DNA of 64,000 nt from Lentimicrobiaceae bacterium (lineage in GTDB: Bacteria > Bacteroidota > Bacteroidia > Bacteroidales > UBA4417). Under the pieces are notes generated by a model. It was not told the origin of the DNA. It saw nothing but the letters and a program-made list of their open reading frames with translations, and did not search any database. The position numbers and the translations under genes were made by a program. The DNA is taken from the NCBI GenBank assembly GCA_033809755.1, contig JAPXLB010000001.1:158563-222562 (forward strand). The letters run 5' to 3'. This document shows, piece after piece, positions 20,061 to 56,413 of the stretch (position 1 is the stretch's first letter; each line of letters begins with the position of its first letter).

Positions 20061-20207
20061 GGTGAATGGTGGTTGGTGATGGGTGATGAGTGATGAGTGA
20101 TGAGTGAGTTATGAGTTGAAATACTCGAAACTCGGAACTCGGAACTCGAAACTAACTCGTACCCCGTAACCCGCAACAGCTAATAGCCAAGAGCTAACAG
20201 CCAACGG
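20061..20207. repeat. Ordered composite heptamer array
   Basis: GTGATGA / GAGTTAT / ACTCGGA / CCCGTAA / TAGCCAA blocks; an inverted counterpart lies at 37372-37500. Confidence 0.85.
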
Positions 20208-20979: not shown

Positions 20980-21552
20980 TTATTTTTTGTTTAAAATTTG
21001 TTCAAGCAGTTTATCGTACCATTGTTTGCCATATTTTTCTATTAAAGGCTCTTTCAAAAATATGTACAGAGGCACGTTGTCAATTTCTCCTTTAACTAAA
21101 GCATCTTCGCATATGTACCACTTTTGGTAATTAACCACTTCGGTTCCGTCACTCAGTTTGCTGAGCCTTATGGGATACAAAAAGCAAGATATAGGCTTTC
21201 TGAAATTGATTTTTCCATCTCTGAATGCCTTTTCTATGGCACATAAAGCAATATCACCATCGTAAACCATGAAAGTGCAGGCTCCTTTTTCTTTCAGAGA
21301 AGTAACAAACTCTCCATCATCATCGTAATCGAAAGAGCCGTACTTTTCAAGCGCTTTCAAACCTTCGGCGTCCATGTATTGTTTAATGACTTCGATGTTT
21401 TCTTCTATGGTTTCAATTTCCGTTTCTAAAATAGGAGCTCCGGCAACACCTTCGATGCAACATATCCCTTTGCAGGCTTTGAGGTCGCAACAGAATTTAA
21501 CATGTTCCAAGTCATCGCTTACGAGTACATTATCAACTATAATCATTTTCAT
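20980..21552 (-). CDS. DUF3109 family protein
   Basis: FCCDLKACKGICCIEG..GAP, CAIE, KPISCFLYPIR and FLKEPLI..YG motifs. Confidence 0.85.
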   Translation of the reverse strand: MKMIIVDNVLVSDDLEHVKFCCDLKACKGICCIEGVAGAPILETEIETIEENIEVIKQYMDAEGLKALEKYGSFDYDDDGEFVTSLKEKGACTFMVYDGDIALCAIEKAFRDGKINFRKPISCFLYPIRLSKLSDGTEVVNYQKWYICEDALVKGEIDNVPLYIFLKEPLIEKYGKQWYDKLLEQILNKK

Positions 21553-22193
21553 AAGTGTTGTAAAAACGGATTGTTATTTTTTTCGTATTCAATGGTAGAA
21601 GCAGGACCATGTCCGGGATAAACAGCATAACTACCGTCTAATGTGAGCAGTTCTCGTTCAATGCTTTCTAAAAGCGTGTTATGGTCGCCGGTAGGCAAGT
21701 CGCTTCTGCCAATGCTACTGTTAAAAAGCACATCGCCGGTTAAAACGTATTTTTCGTTGTGGTTCACCAAGCAGATGCTGCCGTCGGCGTGTCCGGGAGT
21801 GTATCGTACCTCAAGTTCAGTGTCACCGAATTTAACAATATCGCCGTGATTCAAAAATTCGCCTGGGTCACCAATGGGCTCCAATTTTAATCCCATAACT
21901 GAGCCGAACTCTTTTGCTGTATCTATAAAAAGTTTGCTCTTTGGGTGACACAAATAAGGGATATCCCATTTTTTTTGAACAAAATTATTGCCCAAAATAT
22001 GATCGACGTGCATGTGCGTATATATTATTTTGACGGGTTTAAGATTATTTTCGCCGATAAATTCTGATAAAATTTTTTCCTCATATTCTCCGTAGCAACC
22101 CGGGTCTACGATTATGCAACTATTGTCGGATGAGGAAATTACGTATGTGTTTACCTGAACAGGATTGAAAACTAGAGTGTTAATTTTGCTCAT
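21549..22193 (-). CDS. Metallo-beta-lactamase-fold hydrolase (glyoxalase II/YcbL-like)
   Basis: THMHVDH, TPGHADG, GDVLF..SIGRSD and PGHG motifs. Confidence 0.9.
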   Translation of the reverse strand: MSKINTLVFNPVQVNTYVISSSDNSCIIVDPGCYGEYEEKILSEFIGENNLKPVKIIYTHMHVDHILGNNFVQKKWDIPYLCHPKSKLFIDTAKEFGSVMGLKLEPIGDPGEFLNHGDIVKFGDTELEVRYTPGHADGSICLVNHNEKYVLTGDVLFNSSIGRSDLPTGDHNTLLESIERELLTLDGSYAVYPGHGPASTIEYEKNNNPFLQHL

Positions 22194-22498
22194 ATTTTGT
22201 TTGTGTTAGCGTTAAAATGTAGCGCACAAGGTGTTTGTTCACCTTATTTGCTACTTATTCTACAAAAATAAAATTTTTACAAATATAGGGTTTTGTTAAT
22301 CATTGCAAGATTAACCTTGATAAATTATTGTAATCTGTTTTATAACTGGCTGTTAGCTTTTAGCCATTAGCCGTTGGCAACAATTTCGGATGCTGAGCTT
22401 TTCTAAAATAGTGTAAGCTAATATTTTCCACACACGCTTTACAAAAGCGTGCGAGCGAAGGAAAAAAAAGAGGACAAATGAATAATTGCGAAAAAATA

Positions 22499-22528
22499 TT
22501 GCTATTTGGAAAAGTTCTTGTAATTTTG
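22499..22528 (+). promoter_or_regulatory. Bacteroidota promoter, unit 1
   Basis: TTG (22499-22501), 19 nt spacer, TAATTTTG (22521-22528). Confidence 0.7.
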
Positions 22529-22532
22529 CGAA

Positions 22533-22604
22533 CGCCTGAGGGGAGTCTGTGCTCTCCACACGATCCCGTCCTTTAGTTTTTATAATTAAAGGACGGTTTT
22601 TTTT
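22533..22604 (+). ncRNA. Candidate ~70-nt small RNA (hairpin plus intrinsic terminator)
   Basis: Follows the promoter. Hairpin GGGGAG/CTCTCC (22540-22557); terminator CCGTCCTTTA...TAAAGGACGG (22566-22596) followed by T8. Confidence 0.5.
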
Positions 22605-22750
22605 ATTTATTCTACATATCTTTATTATGGATTTATAAACGATTATTATAAATAATCCAAAATTCGTACATAGTAGTTTTTTTGCACACGCTTTACAAAA
22701 GCGTGCGAGCAAAGGGGAAAAGAGAACAAATGAATAAACGCAAATAAATA

Positions 22751-22780
22751 TTGCTATCTGGAAAAGTTTTTATATTTTTG
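22751..22780 (+). promoter_or_regulatory. Bacteroidota promoter, unit 2
   Basis: TTG (22751-22753), 19 nt spacer, TATTTTTG (22773-22780). Confidence 0.7.
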
Positions 22781-22785
22781 CAGAC

Positions 22786-22898
22786 GAAATAGTAAGAGAT
22801 TAAAAACAATTAATGCTGTCATAGGAAGACAGAGCCGCTGAAAAGCCGCTTGATTGCGTGGTTCGAGTCCCGCTAATTGTTTTTAGTCTCTTGTTTTT
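22786..22898 (+). ncRNA. Candidate tRNA-like small RNA on a 19-bp closing stem
   Basis: 22794-22812 pairs with 22874-22892. Inside: a D-like arm CTGTC-ATAGGAA-GACAG, an anticodon-like arm GCCGC-TGAAAA-GCCGC and a T-arm with GGTTCGAGTCC. Confidence 0.55.
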
Positions 22899-22984
22899 AT
22901 ATATCCTTTTTTAGAATATCTTTCACCTAACAAGGGTGGTTTTTGTCAATTATCGATAATTAACAATTATTAATTGCTAATTGC

Positions 22985-23133: not shown

Positions 23134-26100
23134 ATGAAACGTAGAATAGGCATAGCGACAATAAGTATTTTGTTATTTATTAGCTTCAACAACGCTAATG
23201 CTCAGTTTTACAACGGTTCGCAGGTTACTTTCGGCAAAAACAGAGTACAATACAACGATTTTTTATGGACTTACTACAGGTTTAATAGTTTCGACGTGTA
23301 TTTTTATTTAAACGGTAAAGAACTGGCACAGCACACCGCCGACTACGTCCATCGCATTATTCCGCAAATTGAAACACAATTATCCACAACCCTTGATACA
23401 AAGCTGCAATTTATTGTTTTTAACTCGCTTTCCGACCTAAAACAAAGCAATTTAGGTCTTATGGAAAACAAACAATACAACATAGGTGGAATTACTCACA
23501 TTATCGGAAGTAAGGTTTTTATTTACTTCAACGGCGATAAAAACAACTTCGAACAGCAAATACGAGCAGGTATTGTACGCATTCTGACTCAGAAAATAAT
23601 TTACGGAACTTCAGTAACGGCTCAAATTAAAAACAACACTATTATCAATCTGCCAAATTGGTTTATAGATGGTTTGGTTTCGTACTACAGCACCGAGTGG
23701 GATTCGGAAATGGACAATAAAATGCGACAAGGGATGCTGAACAAAAACTATAAAAAAATCAATCATCTGTACGGGCAGGATGCTGTTATCATAGGACACA
23801 GCTTTTGGCGATATATAGCTCAAAAATTCGGCAAAGATAAAATCAATAATATCCTGTTTATCACGCGCCAAATGAGGAGCATAGAAAAAGGATTATACTA
23901 CGTTTTAAGTGTTCCCTATGATGCTCTTATGAACGATTGGCAGCAATGGTACGAAAATCAGTACTCCGACTTTAATGCCGACGGTTTTGCCGATTACTAT
24001 AATATTCCTGTGAAAGTTAGGAAAAACAAGGATTACTATAACCTTAAGGTAAGTCCCGACGGCAACAATGTCCTTTACGTCGAAAACAACAAGGGCATAA
24101 AGAGGTTGTTTTTAATTTCCGATAAAAATAACGGCAAGAAAAAGCGTTTGCTTCGTCAGGGAATACGCTCAAGCGACAAGATTGATACCGATTATCCTAT
24201 TGCTCAATGGCATCCCAACGGTAATATTATAACTATGATTGACGAAAATAAAGGACAAATTTCATTTCATTTCTACGATTTGAGAGAACAGAAATGGACA
24301 AAACAAGACCTTTTCGGATTTCAAAAAATATTAGACTTCAGCTATTCGCCTGACAGTAGAAATATTATTATGTCGGCTGTTAAGAAAGGGCAATCGGATA
24401 TATACTTGTACAATATTGCAGCCAATGCTGCCGAAAATATTACCAAAGACGCATACAACGACCTACATCCGCAGTTTGTTAGCAACGATATTATAGTGTT
24501 CAGCTCAAACAGACCAAGCGATACGCTAAGCTTTTCTGACGAATACAAGCAATCGTACAACGGAATGTCGAAAAACGACTTGTTTGTTTATAATATAAAG
24601 TCGAGAGACAAACTGCTTTACCGAGTTGAAAAATCTGCTTATGCCAACGAAACATTGCCGAAAGCACTAAACGAAAACGAATTTTTATTTCTTTCAGATA
24701 AAAACGGCATAAACAACTGCTACATTGCCAATATTCAAAAGGTTGTAGCATCTGTTGATACCGCAATTCACTACCGAATGTTTGTCAGCACCAAACCCGT
24801 ATCAAACTATAACAATAGCATAATCGATTACGATGTTGATTTGTCGAAAAACCAACTTCTTGTGCAAATTATGGAGGACAATAAGGCGGTTTTCAAGCAA
24901 GTGCCTATCAATAAGAGTTCAAAAACCTTAGAACAGACAGATTTTTCCGAATTAAGCATTAAAAAACATATAGCCGAAACACAAGCCGACACAGTTAAAC
25001 GCGATAAATTCAAACGCAAGCGTTTTGTTAATGTTTACGCCAACGATGTTATTATTGAAGACACCAGCTCAAGTAGCATTATCAGAAGCGGCAGCAATCG
25101 CAGCGTTCCTTTCTTTAGCAAAAAGGAAACCTTGTATTACGAAGAATACAAAAAATCGGATTATAACCTTACCACACCGCAGGCAAGAAACTATTTAGTC
25201 GAGTATTCGATCAACGATTTGGTAAGTCAGCTCGATTTTTCCAGAATCAGCACAAGTTACCAGCCATATTTGGGATATGCCGGTCCTGTATTTCAAAAAC
25301 AACCCACAAATGCTAATCTCATTGTTGGTGCTACCGATTTGTTGGAAGATTACAGAATAATTCTAGGAACTCGACTGAACACAAGTTTAGTCAACAACGA
25401 ATATATAATTGGGTTCGGCAATTACCAAAAGCGTTTGGACAAAGAATTGTTTTTCAGGCGTTCGGGCTTTGATATGGCGTACACAAATGCTTATATCAGG
25501 CATCATATCTACGAGTTGCATTTTATTCTTCGCTATCCTTTTAACGAAATATTAGCTCTGGAAAACACATTGTCTTTGCAGTACGACCACCCGGTTTCGT
25601 TAGCTTTTGAATATTTTACGGCAAACATTACCCCTAAACCCGATTTGTGGGGCATAGAAAAGTTGGCACTTATTTACGACAACACTCATGAGCTTGGCTT
25701 GAATTTGTTGGATGGAACCCGATTTAAAATATTTTCCGAATATTATCAGCTTGCCATCTCCGAAAAGGAAAAAACAAACATGATAGTCGTTGGAGCCGAT
25801 TTCAGAAATTACTTGCCTATACATAAAAGTTTTATTTGGGCAAATAGGTTTTCGGCAAGTACGTCATTTGGTCGTAACAGACTGCTGTACTACGTTGGCG
25901 GAGTTGATAATTGGATTATTCCTAAATTCGAAACCGAGTACCTTACCGATTACAAGTACGACTACGCATTTCAGGCATTGGCTACAAATATGCGCGGATT
26001 TAAGCAAAACATCAGAAGCGGAAATACCTTTGCTATTTATAGCACCGAGTTGCGTTTCCCTGTCTTTAAGTATCTTTTGAATAAACCCTTGAAATTTGAA

Positions 26101-26385
26101 TTTTTAAACAACTTCCAAATTGTCGGTTTCGCTGATGTCGGCTCTGCATGGCAAGGAATTAATCCTTTTGACGAAGATAACACGTATTTTACAAGATATA
26201 TAGATAATAAGCCGCTGTCAGTAAGCGTAAAAGTTCAGCAAGACCCGCTTGTTGCAGGTTACGGTTTTGGGCTCAGGACAACCGTTTTAGGTTATTTTGT
26301 CCGTGCCGATTGGGCTTGGGGAATGCAAGATAGAAAAATCATTAAAAAACCCATGTTTTACCTTTCGCTAAGTCTCGACTTTTAA
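23134..26385 (+). CDS. Large outer-membrane protein: peptidase-MA-like N-terminus, TolB/WD40-like propeller and C-terminal Omp85-like barrel
   Basis: Signal peptide; FGKNRVQY; P.WFIDGL; SPDG/HPNG/YSPDS propeller repeats; MRGF, ELRFP and FADVGSAW; terminal FYLSLSLDF; TACTTTTG promoter at 23090-23097. Confidence 0.7.
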   Translation: MKRRIGIATISILLFISFNNANAQFYNGSQVTFGKNRVQYNDFLWTYYRFNSFDVYFYLNGKELAQHTADYVHRIIPQIETQLSTTLDTKLQFIVFNSLSDLKQSNLGLMENKQYNIGGITHIIGSKVFIYFNGDKNNFEQQIRAGIVRILTQKIIYGTSVTAQIKNNTIINLPNWFIDGLVSYYSTEWDSEMDNKMRQGMLNKNYKKINHLYGQDAVIIGHSFWRYIAQKFGKDKINNILFITRQMRSIEKGLYYVLSVPYDALMNDWQQWYENQYSDFNADGFADYYNIPVKVRKNKDYYNLKVSPDGNNVLYVENNKGIKRLFLISDKNNGKKKRLLRQGIRSSDKIDTDYPIAQWHPNGNIITMIDENKGQISFHFYDLREQKWTKQDLFGFQKILDFSYSPDSRNIIMSAVKKGQSDIYLYNIAANAAENITKDAYNDLHPQFVSNDIIVFSSNRPSDTLSFSDEYKQSYNGMSKNDLFVYNIKSRDKLLYRVEKSAYANETLPKALNENEFLFLSDKNGINNCYIANIQKVVASVDTAIHYRMFVSTKPVSNYNNSIIDYDVDLSKNQLLVQIMEDNKAVFKQVPINKSSKTLEQTDFSELSIKKHIAETQADTVKRDKFKRKRFVNVYANDVIIEDTSSSSIIRSGSNRSVPFFSKKETLYYEEYKKSDYNLTTPQARNYLVEYSINDLVSQLDFSRISTSYQPYLGYAGPVFQKQPTNANLIVGATDLLEDYRIILGTRLNTSLVNNEYIIGFGNYQKRLDKELFFRRSGFDMAYTNAYIRHHIYELHFILRYPFNEILALENTLSLQYDHPVSLAFEYFTANITPKPDLWGIEKLALIYDNTHELGLNLLDGTRFKIFSEYYQLAISEKEKTNMIVVGADFRNYLPIHKSFIWANRFSASTSFGRNRLLYYVGGVDNWIIPKFETEYLTDYKYDYAFQALATNMRGFKQNIRSGNTFAIYSTELRFPVFKYLLNKPLKFEFLNNFQIVGFADVGSAWQGINPFDEDNTYFTRYIDNKPLSVSVKVQQDPLVAGYGFGLRTTVLGYFVRADWAWGMQDRKIIKKPMFYLSLSLDF

Positions 26386-30020: not shown

Positions 30021-30956
30021 ATGTTGGTTGGACAAACATACAAACTAAAAAAAATAAAATCACCCCTGAATTATATTGGCGGAAAGGTGAAGTTATTAGA
30101 TCAAATTTTGCCTCTTTTTCCACAAGGGATTGATAATTTTATAGATTTATTTTGTGGTGGTTGTAATGTTGGCATAAATGTGAATGCAAACAAAATTCAT
30201 TTCAATGATAATCTAATTTACTTGATTGAGATGTACAAAGTGTTTCAACAGAAAAGCATAGAAGATACTCTACGCCACATTGAAAAGCGAATTAACGAAT
30301 TTGACTTGTCTTTGACAAACGAAAAAGGATATAAAAACTTAAGAAACAAATACAACAAACTAAGAAATCCTCTAGATTTATTTGTTTTGATTGCTTTCTC
30401 TTTCAATCATCAAATACGCTTTAATAATAGCCATGATTTTAATAATCCTTTTGGGCGAGAGCGTAGTAGTTTTAATCCAAGAATGCGACAAAACTTGGTA
30501 AATTTTATCCTTGCCATTAAAGAAAAGGATGTGCATTTTTCAAGCCAAGATTTCGATAAATTTAATTTTGAAAAACTAAGTAATAAAGATTTTGTTTACG
30601 CAGACCCGCCTTATTTAATAACTTGCGGAACGTATAATGATGGAAAGAGAGGGTTTAAAGGTTGGTCGGAAAGAGAAGAAAAAACATTGTTGAAGAGGCT
30701 TGATAATCTTAATGAACTGGGAGTTAAATTTGCGTTATCCAATGTTTTAGAACATAAAGGAAAAGAAAATAGTATATTAAAAGCGTGGGTACACAACCAG
30801 TCAAGCTATATTGTTAATTATTTAAATATCAATTATTCAAATTCGAACTATCAAACTATCGTGCGTGATAGAAAGGCAAGCGTCGAAGTTTTGATAACGA
30901 ATTACAAGCCCCAAAAACCAAAACAAAAATCAACACTTTTTGATGACTTATATTAA
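30021..30956 (+). CDS. N6-adenine DNA methyltransferase (D12 class; resembles the M.FokI C-terminal domain)
   Basis: KSPLNYIGGK, DLFCGG, FNHQIRFN..FNNPFG, YADPPY and EVLITNY motifs. Confidence 0.9.
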   Translation: MLVGQTYKLKKIKSPLNYIGGKVKLLDQILPLFPQGIDNFIDLFCGGCNVGINVNANKIHFNDNLIYLIEMYKVFQQKSIEDTLRHIEKRINEFDLSLTNEKGYKNLRNKYNKLRNPLDLFVLIAFSFNHQIRFNNSHDFNNPFGRERSSFNPRMRQNLVNFILAIKEKDVHFSSQDFDKFNFEKLSNKDFVYADPPYLITCGTYNDGKRGFKGWSEREEKTLLKRLDNLNELGVKFALSNVLEHKGKENSILKAWVHNQSSYIVNYLNINYSNSNYQTIVRDRKASVEVLITNYKPQKPKQKSTLFDDLY

Positions 30957-30959
30957 TTT

Positions 30960-32021
30960 ATGAGGTATATTGGTAATAAAGAAAACTTGCTTGAAAAAAT
31001 ATATCAAGTAATGCAGTCAAAAAATATTAATGGAAATTCTTTTTTTGATTTCTTTTCAGGTACAGCAAATGTTGGCAAGTTTTTCAAAAAACTAAATTAC
31101 CAGATTTATTCTTCCGATTTGCTATATTTTTCTTATGTCCTACAACGAACATATATTGAGAACAACGTGGAATTACAATTCGAAAAGTTGATGAATACAC
31201 TAAATTATAAAAGTAGAACTTTACTAGCCTCACCTTTGTACATTATATTAGAATACCTTAATCAGATAGAGCCGATAAATGGGTTTATTGCTCAAAACTA
31301 CACTCCAAGTGGAACACAACACTTAGAAATTCCCAGAATGTATTATTCAGATGAGAATGGAAAAATTATTGATGCAATCCGTCAGCAAATTGAAAATTGG
31401 AAAGTAGAAAATTTAATTTCAGAAAGTGAATATTTTGCTCTGTTGGCGTGTTTAATTGAAACAGTACCGTATTATGCTAACATTGCAGGCGTTTATGCCG
31501 CATTTCATAAAAAATGGGATCCAAGAGCAGTTAAAAAATTAGTATTACGTCCAATTGAATTTGTGATAAATAATTTTGATAATCATTGTTATAACGAAGA
31601 CTCAGTTAACCTGCTTGATAAAATAGAAGCAGATATTTTTTACTTAGACCCACCATACAACCAACGACAATATGCCCCCAACTACCATTTATTAGAGACA
31701 ATTGCAAAATATGACAATCCAGATATTAAAGGCGTTACAGGAATAAGGGCGAATTATGAAAATCAAAAATCTAAATTTTGTAATGCAATGACAGCACTGC
31801 AGGAATTAGAAAAAATTGCAAAATTTGGGAAATACAGCACTTTGATTTTAAGTTATAACAACGAAGGTATTATGCCACAAGAAGAAATAATCTCAATATT
31901 ACAAACTTTTGGAAAAGTTGATTTAATTGAGTTTGATTATACTCGTTATAAAAGTAACAGTAGGGGAAGAAGTAAACACAGAAAAATGGTTAAAGAACAA
32001 CTTTATATTCTACAACGATGA
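30960..32021 (+). CDS. N6-adenine DNA methyltransferase (D12 class; resembles the M.FokI N-terminal domain)
   Basis: MRYIGNK, DFFSGT, RMYY, LDPPYNQRQY..NYHLLETIA and SYNNEG motifs. Confidence 0.9.
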   Translation: MRYIGNKENLLEKIYQVMQSKNINGNSFFDFFSGTANVGKFFKKLNYQIYSSDLLYFSYVLQRTYIENNVELQFEKLMNTLNYKSRTLLASPLYIILEYLNQIEPINGFIAQNYTPSGTQHLEIPRMYYSDENGKIIDAIRQQIENWKVENLISESEYFALLACLIETVPYYANIAGVYAAFHKKWDPRAVKKLVLRPIEFVINNFDNHCYNEDSVNLLDKIEADIFYLDPPYNQRQYAPNYHLLETIAKYDNPDIKGVTGIRANYENQKSKFCNAMTALQELEKIAKFGKYSTLILSYNNEGIMPQEEIISILQTFGKVDLIEFDYTRYKSNSRGRSKHRKMVKEQLYILQR

Positions 32022-54819: not shown

Positions 54820-55130
54820 GTTTCAATCTTTTTTTATGTTCTTTTGTCTGTGACACAAAAGAACCAAAAAGTCAAGGCTGACATTTCTTTTCTGAATTGC
54901 GTTCTCATAAATCCTAAGTTCGTGCGGGTGATTCCCGAGCAAGCTCGGAACTTCCCGTTCTCACTAAGGATTTATTTCGAACTACATTCAGAAGAAATGT
55001 ATGCCGTCCTTTTTAAAGCTAAATTTTGGGCTATTGTTCTTCCTTGCTATGGCAGATAGCTTGAACGAAAAGAGTGAAGTTTACTTATTACAAAACAGCT
55101 CAACAAATTCGCAGACTTTCGCTCGCTTTA
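54820..55130 (-). mobile_element. ~310-bp fold-back repeat element, copy 2
   Basis: Inverted near-identical copy of 5325-5633; bracketed by palindromes at 54716-54748 and 55120-55146. Confidence 0.7.
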
Positions 55131-55150
55131 CAAAAGCGAACGAGCGGAAG

Positions 55151-55630
55151 TTAATAATTATTTTTAGCTTCGTTTAATATAGTCTCAATATCCTCATCAA
55201 AAAATGTCTTTATCAAGTAATATTCTTTATTATTCACTTTAAATTTCAACATTTCTTTATTTTGTTTTTTAGCCATTCCAAATTCACAAGGCATAAGTCT
55301 GATGTCTTTTATTTTAATACTAGCACTTTTACTTTTTAAATAAAAAAATTTAAATGTATTGAAATATAATATATCTTTTTCTATATGAATGTTTTCTACA
55401 ACTTTATTAATAATTTCTATTTTACTTATTCGAATATGTACACCTAATACAAATAATATAAATAATACGATACACTGAACATAAAATGGAACCTCACTAA
55501 TAACACTATAACTATATAGTAAGTGAGCTGTTAAAAGAACAAATAAAAAAAGAGATATTACAAATATTATCATGTTTGTTAAATGTAATTTGTAAAATTT
55601 GCTAGCATTCAGGTTTGTTTTCAAATTCAT
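55151..55630 (-). CDS. Hypothetical 2-TM membrane protein, paralog A
   Basis: Two TM segments followed by a soluble domain ending KEYYLIKTFFDEDIETIL; very AT-rich. Confidence 0.65.
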   Translation of the reverse strand: MNLKTNLNASKFYKLHLTNMIIFVISLFLFVLLTAHLLYSYSVISEVPFYVQCIVLFILFVLGVHIRISKIEIINKVVENIHIEKDILYFNTFKFFYLKSKSASIKIKDIRLMPCEFGMAKKQNKEMLKFKVNNKEYYLIKTFFDEDIETILNEAKNNY

Positions 55631-55708
55631 AGATTTATAAATTATATTGTTTCAACTTTTAACCAATCACGTTAAATATGATGATTATTATATATAGACA
55701 TAATCATA

Positions 55709-56209
55709 TTAGCTATTATGAATATTGTTAATGTTGTTTAATTTTGTTTTTAATATAGTCTCAATATCTTCATCAAAAAATGCTTTTATCAAGTAATATT
55801 CTTTGCTATTTATTTTAACCCTAAAAGCAGATTCCTGTTTTTTATCAAATGTATCAATATTGTGCGGTATTAGTTTTATGTCCTTTATATCACAACTGTC
55901 TTTTTTACTTTTTTTACATAAAATATTAAATGTTTCTATTTGTACAGAATTTTCTCGCATTTCTATTGAGCTTGTTATTTTATTTACAAATGCTAACATT
56001 CTAATTATTATAAACAAAAATAAAATTATTCCATAGCACAGTGTAAACCATGAAACTATCAACAAGTATATATATGAATCTGCTCCTAAAAACATTAAAA
56101 ATGATAGTCCTCCAACCAAAATAGGGGAGAGACAAATGTGTTGTATAATTCTCTTTCTATATGTTAAGTAATATTTAATACCATTACTATTTGTAGAATA
56201 TTTACTCAT
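55709..56209 (-). CDS. Hypothetical 2-TM membrane protein, paralog B
   Basis: Same layout, ending KEYYLIKAFFDEDIETIL; minus-strand TATCTTTG promoter at 56232-56239. Confidence 0.65.
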   Translation of the reverse strand: MSKYSTNSNGIKYYLTYRKRIIQHICLSPILVGGLSFLMFLGADSYIYLLIVSWFTLCYGIILFLFIIIRMLAFVNKITSSIEMRENSVQIETFNILCKKSKKDSCDIKDIKLIPHNIDTFDKKQESAFRVKINSKEYYLIKAFFDEDIETILKTKLNNINNIHNS

Positions 56210-56277
56210 GGGTGTCTATAATAATTCCCTTCAAAGATAATCTGTTTTTCATAAAACAAATATATTTTGCTAAAACC

Positions 56278-56413
56278 CGCTCGCTTTGCAAAAGCGAGCG
56301 AGCGGAGGTGTGTTAGTTTCGAGTATTGAGTATAGAGTTTCGAGTTCCAAAACTCATAACTCATAACTCATAACTCAAAACTCCCCCGTAACCCGCACCC
56401 CGCAACTCGTAAC
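56278..56413. repeat. CGCTTTGCAAAAGCG palindrome plus heptamer tracts
   Basis: CGCTCGCTTTGCAAAAGCGAGCGAGCG (56278-56304), then GAGT/ACTCATA x3 and CCCGTAA/CCCGCAA tracts. Confidence 0.8.

Follow-up and report, generated by a model that had tools for sequence, protein, structure and literature searches.

The palindromes described here belong with the REP and REPIN elements of TnpAREP subclass 2.6 known from Bacteroidetes (Quentin et al. 2018, PMC6006769). Like those elements, they form hairpins, are present in dozens of intergenic copies as single palindromes or inverted doublets, and occur beside a subclass 2.6 RAYT gene, in our case in a sister species. TnpAREP can cut REPs and join them again, and what makes bacteria retain REPs and RAYT genes is still debated (PMC6006769). 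The parts of that paper on which we draw describe no RNA cargo at subclass 2.6 REPs. In contrast, direct REP copies in the genomes studied here bound promoter-bearing RNA or protein cargo, which varies between sister species. The RNAs predicted at the locus resemble the intergenic small RNAs (sRNAs) of Bacteroidota (Ryan et al. 2020, PMC7366714), since they have a sigma-ABfr promoter, an intrinsic terminator, no ORF, and a narrow distribution, the terminator of the second RNA consisting of a clamp helix and T5 only. They differ from the sRNAs covered in the consulted part of that study in that their folds are tight and leave little seed free, that they are tied to REPs, and that they are predicted here from sequence. 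REPs and promoter-terminator sRNAs are known kinds of elements, and what may be new is RNA cargo bounded by REPs, together with the clamped tRNA mimic proposed below.

The locus is part of a 64,000-nt stretch of DNA that was analysed as a whole, hereafter the window, from a host Bacteroidales assembly (G000; 2.29 Mb, 91% complete). Two tandem units are located between a gene for an MBL-fold metallo-hydrolase (MBL) and a gene for a conserved protein (Table 1). The genome G327 was used for comparison and belongs to a sister species, with 93% identity of the MBL protein. The original prediction of a duplicated palindrome-and-promoter unit of about 100 bp was borne out: the heads at 22431-22532 and 22685-22784 differ by 14 substitutions and one indel over 100 aligned columns (86% identity; 85.9% over 99 nt by BLAST, E 2e-26), and their 26-nt palindromes are the same. 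The full promoter motif TTG-19 nt-TAnnTTTG can be read in both copies, and the similarity of the heads stops just past the -7 box, both as had been claimed. The motif agrees with the sigma-ABfr consensus as given in the consulted part of PMC7366714. The proposed BLASTN check of the unit recovered the two side-by-side copies and no others in the 2.29-Mb genome.

Table 1. Window positions of the two tandem units and of the genes on either side.
Feature	Position	Strand	Remark
MBL-fold metallo-hydrolase gene, flanking, divergent	21549..22193	-	PF00753, E 9e-35
REP1, palindrome of the RAYT subclass 2.6 REP family	22431..22456	+	
Linker and promoter 1 (TTG 22499-22501, -7 box 22521-22528)	22457..22529	+	
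Payload 1, predicted RNA of about 73 nt	22532..22604	+	Fold z -5.25
AT-rich spacer between payload 1 and REP2	22605..22684	no strand	
REP2, oriented as REP1; end of unit 1 and start of unit 2	22685..22710	+	
Linker and promoter 2 (TTG 22751-22753, -7 box 22773-22780), paralogue of promoter 1	22711..22781	+	
Payload 2, predicted RNA of about 114 nt, cloverleaf in tRNA order	22785..22898	+	
Gene for a conserved 1083-aa protein with a TolB-like propeller stretch, flanking	23134..26385	+	

The segment 22480-22925 is unbroken in contigs of runs X14 and X19, which come from two studies, and of run X1, a possible source of the assembly. Contigs from two other studies contain both units with one substitution and one indel in a T-run, and their payload cores are identical. 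Since the segment is intact in independent contigs, the tandem units are not an assembly artefact. In the 15 distant relatives listed with the MBL gene adjacent, the gap is about 130-400 bp long and contains no such unit; the cassette is therefore a lineage-specific addition. No plus-strand ORF longer than 32 aa follows promoter 1 or 2 before position 22974. A 119-aa minus-strand ORF across unit 1 was rejected, because indels of 1 nt interrupt it both in G327 and in other runs. At window 22520-22529, the -7 box of promoter 1 matches GTAnnTTTGC, the 10-bp target consensus of CTnDOT, and integrase crossover at the -7 boxes could be another route by which payloads might be swapped.

The REP core has 33 matches in G000, compared with 3, 3, and 0 in shuffled sequences, and the number of copies in the genome is about 35 (33-35). 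A search of 45 genomes of the family with the REP pattern returned 26 matches in G000, 36 in G327, one in G004, and none in the other 42. One subtype of the REP terminates a 350-bp MITE-like repeat. The RAYT gene in the sister species (G327:C28, L240:574-1104, minus strand) encodes 176 residues, matches NF047646 with 100.7 bits (cut-off 80), and is flanked on both sides by palindromes of the REP1 family, which the G000 site lacks. Its motifs NHIH, WQ, and YIHQNP fit subclass 2.6 in Table 1 of PMC6006769, the part of that paper used for the assignment. The family thus combines a hairpin palindrome in many intergenic copies with the placement of the palindrome beside a tnpAREP gene (REPtron), the latter in G327. 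No cognate RAYT gene was found in the 91% complete G000 assembly. RAYT homologues are present in 59 of 301 genomes of the order; at most of 30 such loci hairpins of equal build lie beside the gene, one with nearly the same sequence.

Several observations concern related elements. The C28 RAYT gene of G327, together with its own REPs, sits inside a REP of another Y1 transposase locus, and the uninterrupted counterpart of this site is near 110600 on C5 of G000. Further Y1 transposase genes of G000 (C5:110653, C8:90179, and C1:104781) each lie beside a palindrome family of their own, which indicates at least four such systems in the lineage. Four REPs in one orientation, 1.4-2.7 kb apart, form a cassette-array-like arrangement in another genome (G117 C74:6337-11979; L303, L310, L311, L315). 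Within the window, two paralogous orphan membrane-like ORFs lie between direct REPs at 55124-56303 (G000 C1:213686-214865) and are also present in G327.

A promoter is located within 170 nt past the REP in three of the 35 G000 copies, and each of the three leads to a structured RNA without an ORF. Two of these are the tandem units, and the third belongs to a REP-promoter-RNA-REP block between two direct REPs (G000 C1:115160-115402, L211:1280-1522), whose RNA has the most stable promoter-proximal fold in the genome. Aligned in register with payload 1, it agrees at 19 of 33 positions, the highest value among 510 other promoter-proximal sequences (next 16); however, the payload 1 model scores only 11 bits on it (E 0.47) and its promoter differs, so the two RNAs may or may not be kin. 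A genome scan for promoters and structure, which recovered the SRP RNA as a positive control, found a REP upstream of three of seven promoters of structured, ORF-less, non-tRNA sequences, compared with 0 of 200 other intergenic promoters. The Fisher p-value is 2e-5, or 7e-4 with the tandem counted as one, at an energy cut-off set post hoc, and the association rests on two independent loci. In 20 regions of G327, which include most of its 36 REP matches, three of 31 REP rows have a promoter; one promoter leads to the ortholog of payload 1, another to a protein gene, and the last to a stretch without structure. No promoter with a structured RNA followed the REP in any of 51 REP rows from five other RAYT-2.6 genomes, and the RNA models R1 and R3 had no match in 41 loci of these genomes. 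The association is real within this lineage and unseen in the other genomes examined.

The original prediction of independently transcribed RNA cassettes at palindrome sites agrees with the appearance of both units, but a dedicated palindrome/promoter module is not supported. The palindrome is a genome-wide RAYT-associated REP, 32 of its 35 copies have no promoter behind them, in G327 a REP with a promoter also heads protein genes, and the five other genomes provided no REP-promoter-RNA unit.

Other promoter-driven RNAs were noticed in G000. A tandem pair of promoters with clamp-helix RNAs at C3:86450-86730 (L343) has compensatory changes, no REP, and no Rfam match. A promoter at C14:1152-1290 (L017), 85% identical to promoter 1 over 34 nt, drives a structured RNA that faces, in convergent orientation, the 3' end of the MuF gene of a Mu-like prophage, and the match of this gene to CdiA_C is faint (E 0.079). 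This RNA, which matched neither Rfam nor the phage collection, is a candidate RNA antitoxin. On the same prophage contig, near 20102 on the minus strand (L344), a promoter is followed by a strongly folded, ORF-less stretch without an Rfam match.

Payload 1 has a predicted folding energy of -27.7 kcal/mol, and none of 200 shuffled sequences was as stable. It comprises a 7-bp hairpin (22540-22557), a terminator hairpin (22566-22596), and a T8 run. All 18 base pairs are retained in the G327 ortholog, where one G-U pair is changed to A-U and the remaining differences lie outside the helices; the covariation consists of a single one-sided change and no two-sided change. Unit 1 is conserved about as well as the promoters of neighbouring genes (7/152 and 2/89 substitutions). 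Payload 1 is reasonably likely to be a functional sRNA that purifying selection maintains, and recent exchange between G000 and G327 would produce the same conservation picture for unit 1. Type III and AbiF RNA antitoxins consist of a promoter, a short structured RNA, and a terminator, the layout also seen in payload 1. In contrast to them, payload 1 has no repeats, no Rfam match, and no toxin gene past its terminator. The assignment to type III, AbiF, or DUF3800 RNA antitoxins was rejected because of the missing adjoining toxin gene and Rfam match.

Payload 2 is predicted to fold with -38.8 kcal/mol (z -5.29), a stability that none of 200 shuffles reached. The claim that the two payloads are different, highly structured, and free of ORFs was upheld, with z close to -5.3 for both. 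One correction concerns the end of payload 2, where a clamp helix of the whole molecule followed by five T takes the place of a separate terminator hairpin. The 20-bp clamp pairs 22793-22812 with 22874-22893 and encloses, in tRNA order, a D-like arm with a 5-bp stem and an A..GG.A loop (22816-22832), an anticodon-like arm with a C-C mismatch and GAAA (22833-22850), a 5-nt variable region (22851-22855), and a bulged T arm with a 5-bp stem and a canonical T-loop (22856-22873). The anticodon-like loop has 4, 6, or 8 nt depending on the register chosen, the linker has 3 nt, and the acceptor stem is nearly all A-U. Pair probabilities range from 0.70 to 1.0 and are mostly near 1.0 in the clamp. Payload 2 is a singleton and offers no covariation.

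The likeness to tRNA is partial. Cloverleaf order, the T-loop consensus, and the GG of the D-loop are present; a 5-bp anticodon stem with a 7-nt loop, a free 3' end on a 7-bp acceptor stem, and a match to the Rfam tRNA family are absent. ARAGORN reports tRNA-?(Phe)(gaaa) with a score of 92.0 at the relaxed threshold only, below all 37 host tRNAs (112-125), and 4-7 hits in each shuffled genome reach this score range. The 11-mer T-loop word occurs in G000 in seven tRNA genes and payload 2 and at no other site, and a looser form of this word arose in 349 of 200,000 shuffles of the payload 2 core. The 18-nt T arm has eight exact matches in viral contigs, each within a tRNA-like cloverleaf, and ARAGORN identifies four of them as tRNAs. 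The only non-self genome matches of the payload 2 model are one tRNA-Gly and one tRNA-Phe. The 5' portion of the T arm is also a heptamer-repeat word of the genome with 12 other copies, and the longest genomic complement found for payload 2 is a heptamer-repeat word. In our model, a long helix bears what resembles a tRNA elbow, and payload 2 is probably a non-translating tRNA mimic. We consider it fairly likely that the D-loop GG would contact the T-loop to form the elbow and that the RNA takes no part in translation, since the 20-bp helix hides its acceptor end and its anticodon loop is irregular. If so, payload 2 would be a candidate tRNA mimic of a new build.

Described tRNA-like RNAs differ from this build. 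The Y RNA YrlA combines a tRNA elbow with a long helix, is circularly permuted, and is encoded beside the Ro60 gene. Payload 2 has the same elbow joined to a long helix, but the order of its parts is that of an ordinary tRNA, and the search yielded no intact TROVE gene; the identification as YrlA was rejected because of the missing Rfam match and adjacent Ro60 (TROVE) gene. C4 RNA, which lies directly behind its own promoter, is a cloverleaf that a long terminal helix closes, and it has long antisense loops. The cloverleaf, the long terminal helix, and the position right after the promoter recur in payload 2, but its T and D loops are of the tRNA type, and it has neither an Rfam match nor a downstream target operon, which led us to reject it as a C4 antisense RNA. 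The C4 antisense RNA of phages P1 and P7 is a substrate of RNase P, according to the title of a work cited in PMC4919922. The irregular tRNAs and allo-tRNAs near toxin-antitoxin loci presented in the consulted part of Mukai et al. (PMC5389517) are likewise tRNA-shaped, probably non-translating, and carried on accessory DNA. Unlike them, payload 2 has no 8/4 or 9/3 acceptor/T stems, no long variable arm, no free acceptor end, and no toxin-antitoxin genes nearby, and it has the 20-bp clamp. Its 5-nt variable region and bulged 5-bp T stem excluded it as an allo-tRNA.

The proposed Rfam check was carried out and gave no meaningful match for payload 1, payload 2, or the other RNA candidates. BLAST searches found no true homologue in 41 relatives (G327 not among them), none of either payload in 301 genomes, those for payload 2 being genomes of the order, and none among phages and plasmids. 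The payload 1 pattern had two other matches in 401 genomes of the class, both due to chance, and the single match of the payload 1 model in 151 genomes was a terminator. The payload 2 model recovered itself and tRNAs in sets of 45, 151, and 151 genomes. Viral contigs returned self, tRNAs, terminators, or chance words, all 28 matches in the metagenome scan were due to chance, and the GTDB scans gave 0 and 59 matches, on which the model peaked at 27.6 bits, on tRNAs. Across the genome, viral, metagenome, GTDB, phage, and plasmid sets, no payload homologue was found outside G000 and G327; exact patterns and models built from one or two sequences miss diverged relatives, and homologues are therefore not found rather than absent. 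The search for a cognate toxin found none: Abi_2 and DUF3800 were absent, and TROVE gave one broken sub-threshold match. Among the articles listed in a literature search, mostly open-access ones, none described such a system. Two other kinds of mobile element were considered. Integron attC sites are long hairpins with RYYYAAC and GTTRRRY ends; inspection revealed no such ends in the unit, which was rejected as an attC cassette. Hairpins resembling attC occur on the C3 island and belong to another sequence family. An IS110 bridge RNA in the REP was rejected, because PF01548 is present in 0 of 2 genomes and the REPs are uninterrupted.

The comparison with G327 shows how the locus has changed. 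The sister species retains REP1, promoter 1, payload 1, the spacer, and REP2; of the second linker it has no more than the initial 8 nt, and it lacks promoter 2 and payload 2. From REP1 to REP2 the species differ by 14 substitutions in 282 positions (5%), compared with 44 of 183 fourfold sites (24%) of the flanking genes. The differences are distributed as 2 of 71 columns in the linker and promoter 1, 7 substitutions in 79 positions and a 3-nt indel in the spacer, and none in REP2 (33/33 identical). Divergence amounts to 14% between the two heads, to about 3% between the species for head 1, and to none for REP2, which indicates that the duplication likely preceded the split of G000 and G327 and that unit 2 was likely lost from G327. 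The third RNA block has no counterpart at the orthologous G327 site. Conversely, G327 C51 (L246:469-2345) contains a 1.8-kb two-gene block with a promoter behind the REP and 32-bp direct REP copies at its ends, whereas the counterpart at G000 C1:213284 is a single REP without genes. The block encodes orphan proteins of 331 aa (lipoprotein-like) and 157 aa, neither with a Pfam match; a relative of the second gene is present on G000 C20. The REP-bounded differences between the two genomes are thus four: the RAYT gene, the two-gene block, the third RNA block, and promoter 2 with payload 2.

Based on these comparisons, a history of the locus can be proposed. The reading that we favour, as yet tentatively, is that two unrelated small RNA genes with their own housekeeping promoters lie behind REPs and were gained and lost in blocks between sister species. 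Both payloads are likely transcribed as the predicted small RNA genes. They differ between the species and match no known RNA family, which makes it likely that they are accessory cargo, in the form of RNA, collected at REPs. REP sites would be hot spots of the lineage for the gain and loss of small self-contained genes, and blocks probably turn over by RAYT cut-and-join or by recombination between direct REPs. The REP and promoter head would have been duplicated before G000 and G327 separated, a tRNA-like gene unrelated to payload 1 would have joined behind the second -7 box, and G327 would have lost promoter 2 and payload 2 later. Judged from the alignments, this order of events is rather likely. 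Some of the polymorphisms require no capture step, since ordinary recombination between direct REPs accounts for them. The function that we prefer, although it is on the unlikely side, is that payload 2 would bind tRNA-recognising proteins as a decoy or antitoxin against a tRNA-cleaving toxin of a mobile element, and that payload 1 would be a similar orphan protein-binding RNA.

We speculate further, and consider it quite improbable, that subclass 2.6 RAYT, a domesticated HUH transposase, and the REPs make up an integron-like system that collects self-contained genes, stand-alone RNA genes included, among them a new class of clamped, unchargeable mimic of the tRNA elbow soaking up tRNA-cleaving toxins. 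The toxins bound might, with no greater probability, derive from phages, defence systems, or competitors. If true, this would provide RAYT/REP systems with a long-sought benefit to the host. Sister species set apart by four REP-bounded blocks, of which two hold RNA alone, offer a concrete test of REPs as entry and exit points of cargo. The present value of the finding is moderate, because the RNAs are predicted only, occur in one or two uncultured digester species, and have covariation limited to one pair.

Among the alternatives, the most serious, though still unlikely, holds that both RNAs were left stranded, as the antitoxin or leader halves, when deletions at REPs removed the protein genes of toxin or abortive-infection modules, and that they now lie idle or decay. 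Neither RNA is followed by an ORF, two of the three RNA blocks are flanked by direct REPs, and G327 is already without payload 2, all of which such relics would share. The C14 prophage promoter, with its RNA convergent with the MuF gene, points in the same direction. At both REP-flanked blocks, short minus-strand frames reach from the right REP into the RNA; the one in the spacer differs from G327 by an indel of 3 nt, and the spacer is possibly the 3' stub of a lost convergent gene. However, open frames of 20-40 codons are frequent by chance in AT-rich DNA, and the 41-aa stub at C1:115254-115376 has no protein match, albeit in weak searches. Promoter 1 and payload 1 are also much better conserved than the fourfold sites, and their changes keep the fold, which argues against decay.

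A dedicated cassette system, which comes close to the original prediction, is improbable; in it, a subclass 2.6 RAYT would cut out units of REP, promoter, and cargo in single-stranded form, insert them elsewhere, and so build arrays with RNA payloads exchanged at the -7 box. It would account for the REP-promoter-RNA association in G000, for the four REP-bounded presence/absence blocks, and for the third RNA being the best in-register match of payload 1. The RAYT block ends a few bases beyond the REP hairpins, its empty site has no such REP, and REPs can be cut and joined again by TnpAREP (PMC6006769, consulted in part). Nevertheless, the 100-bp head occurs only twice and side by side, the third block has another promoter and a poor score with the payload 1 model, and the five other RAYT-2.6 genomes gave neither units nor matches of R1 and R3.

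It is very unlikely that the payloads are ordinary lineage-specific sRNAs, which REPs adjoin because they and other repeats fill intergenic space, and that the shared head reflects a one-off local duplication. Strain specificity is common among sRNAs (27 of 49 high-confidence sRNAs of B. thetaiotaomicron in the consulted part of PMC7366714), the tandem pair on C3 has no REP, and the association comes from two independent loci only; against this, none of the 200 other intergenic promoters has a REP upstream, and the joining of an unrelated tRNA-shaped payload to a duplicated promoter remains unaccounted for. Least probable is that payload 2 is an irregular tRNA, with a 7-bp acceptor freed by RNase P and 3' trimming and completed by CCA addition, which acts as a +1 frameshift suppressor for Phe with its 8-nt GAAA loop reading four bases: ARAGORN draws a cloverleaf with an 8-nt loop resembling that of Phe, encoded CCA is absent from some host tRNA genes, and some irregular tRNAs near toxin-antitoxin loci are charged (PMC5389517, consulted in part), but leader and trailer are locked in the clamp with pair probabilities mostly near 1.0, the A-U acceptor, 5-bp D-stem, 3-nt linker, and C-C mismatch are atypical, and the score of 92 compares with at least 112 for real tRNAs.

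Three minor observations concern the host genome. The 37 tRNA calls of G000 include no tRNA-Asn, probably because of an assembly gap. Two genes for D12-class adenine methyltransferases lie side by side at window 30021-32021. A reciprocal rearrangement between G000 and G327 has its breakpoints in heptamer-repeat tracts to the left of REP1, at window positions 22347-22378 and at G000 C13:13775-14034.
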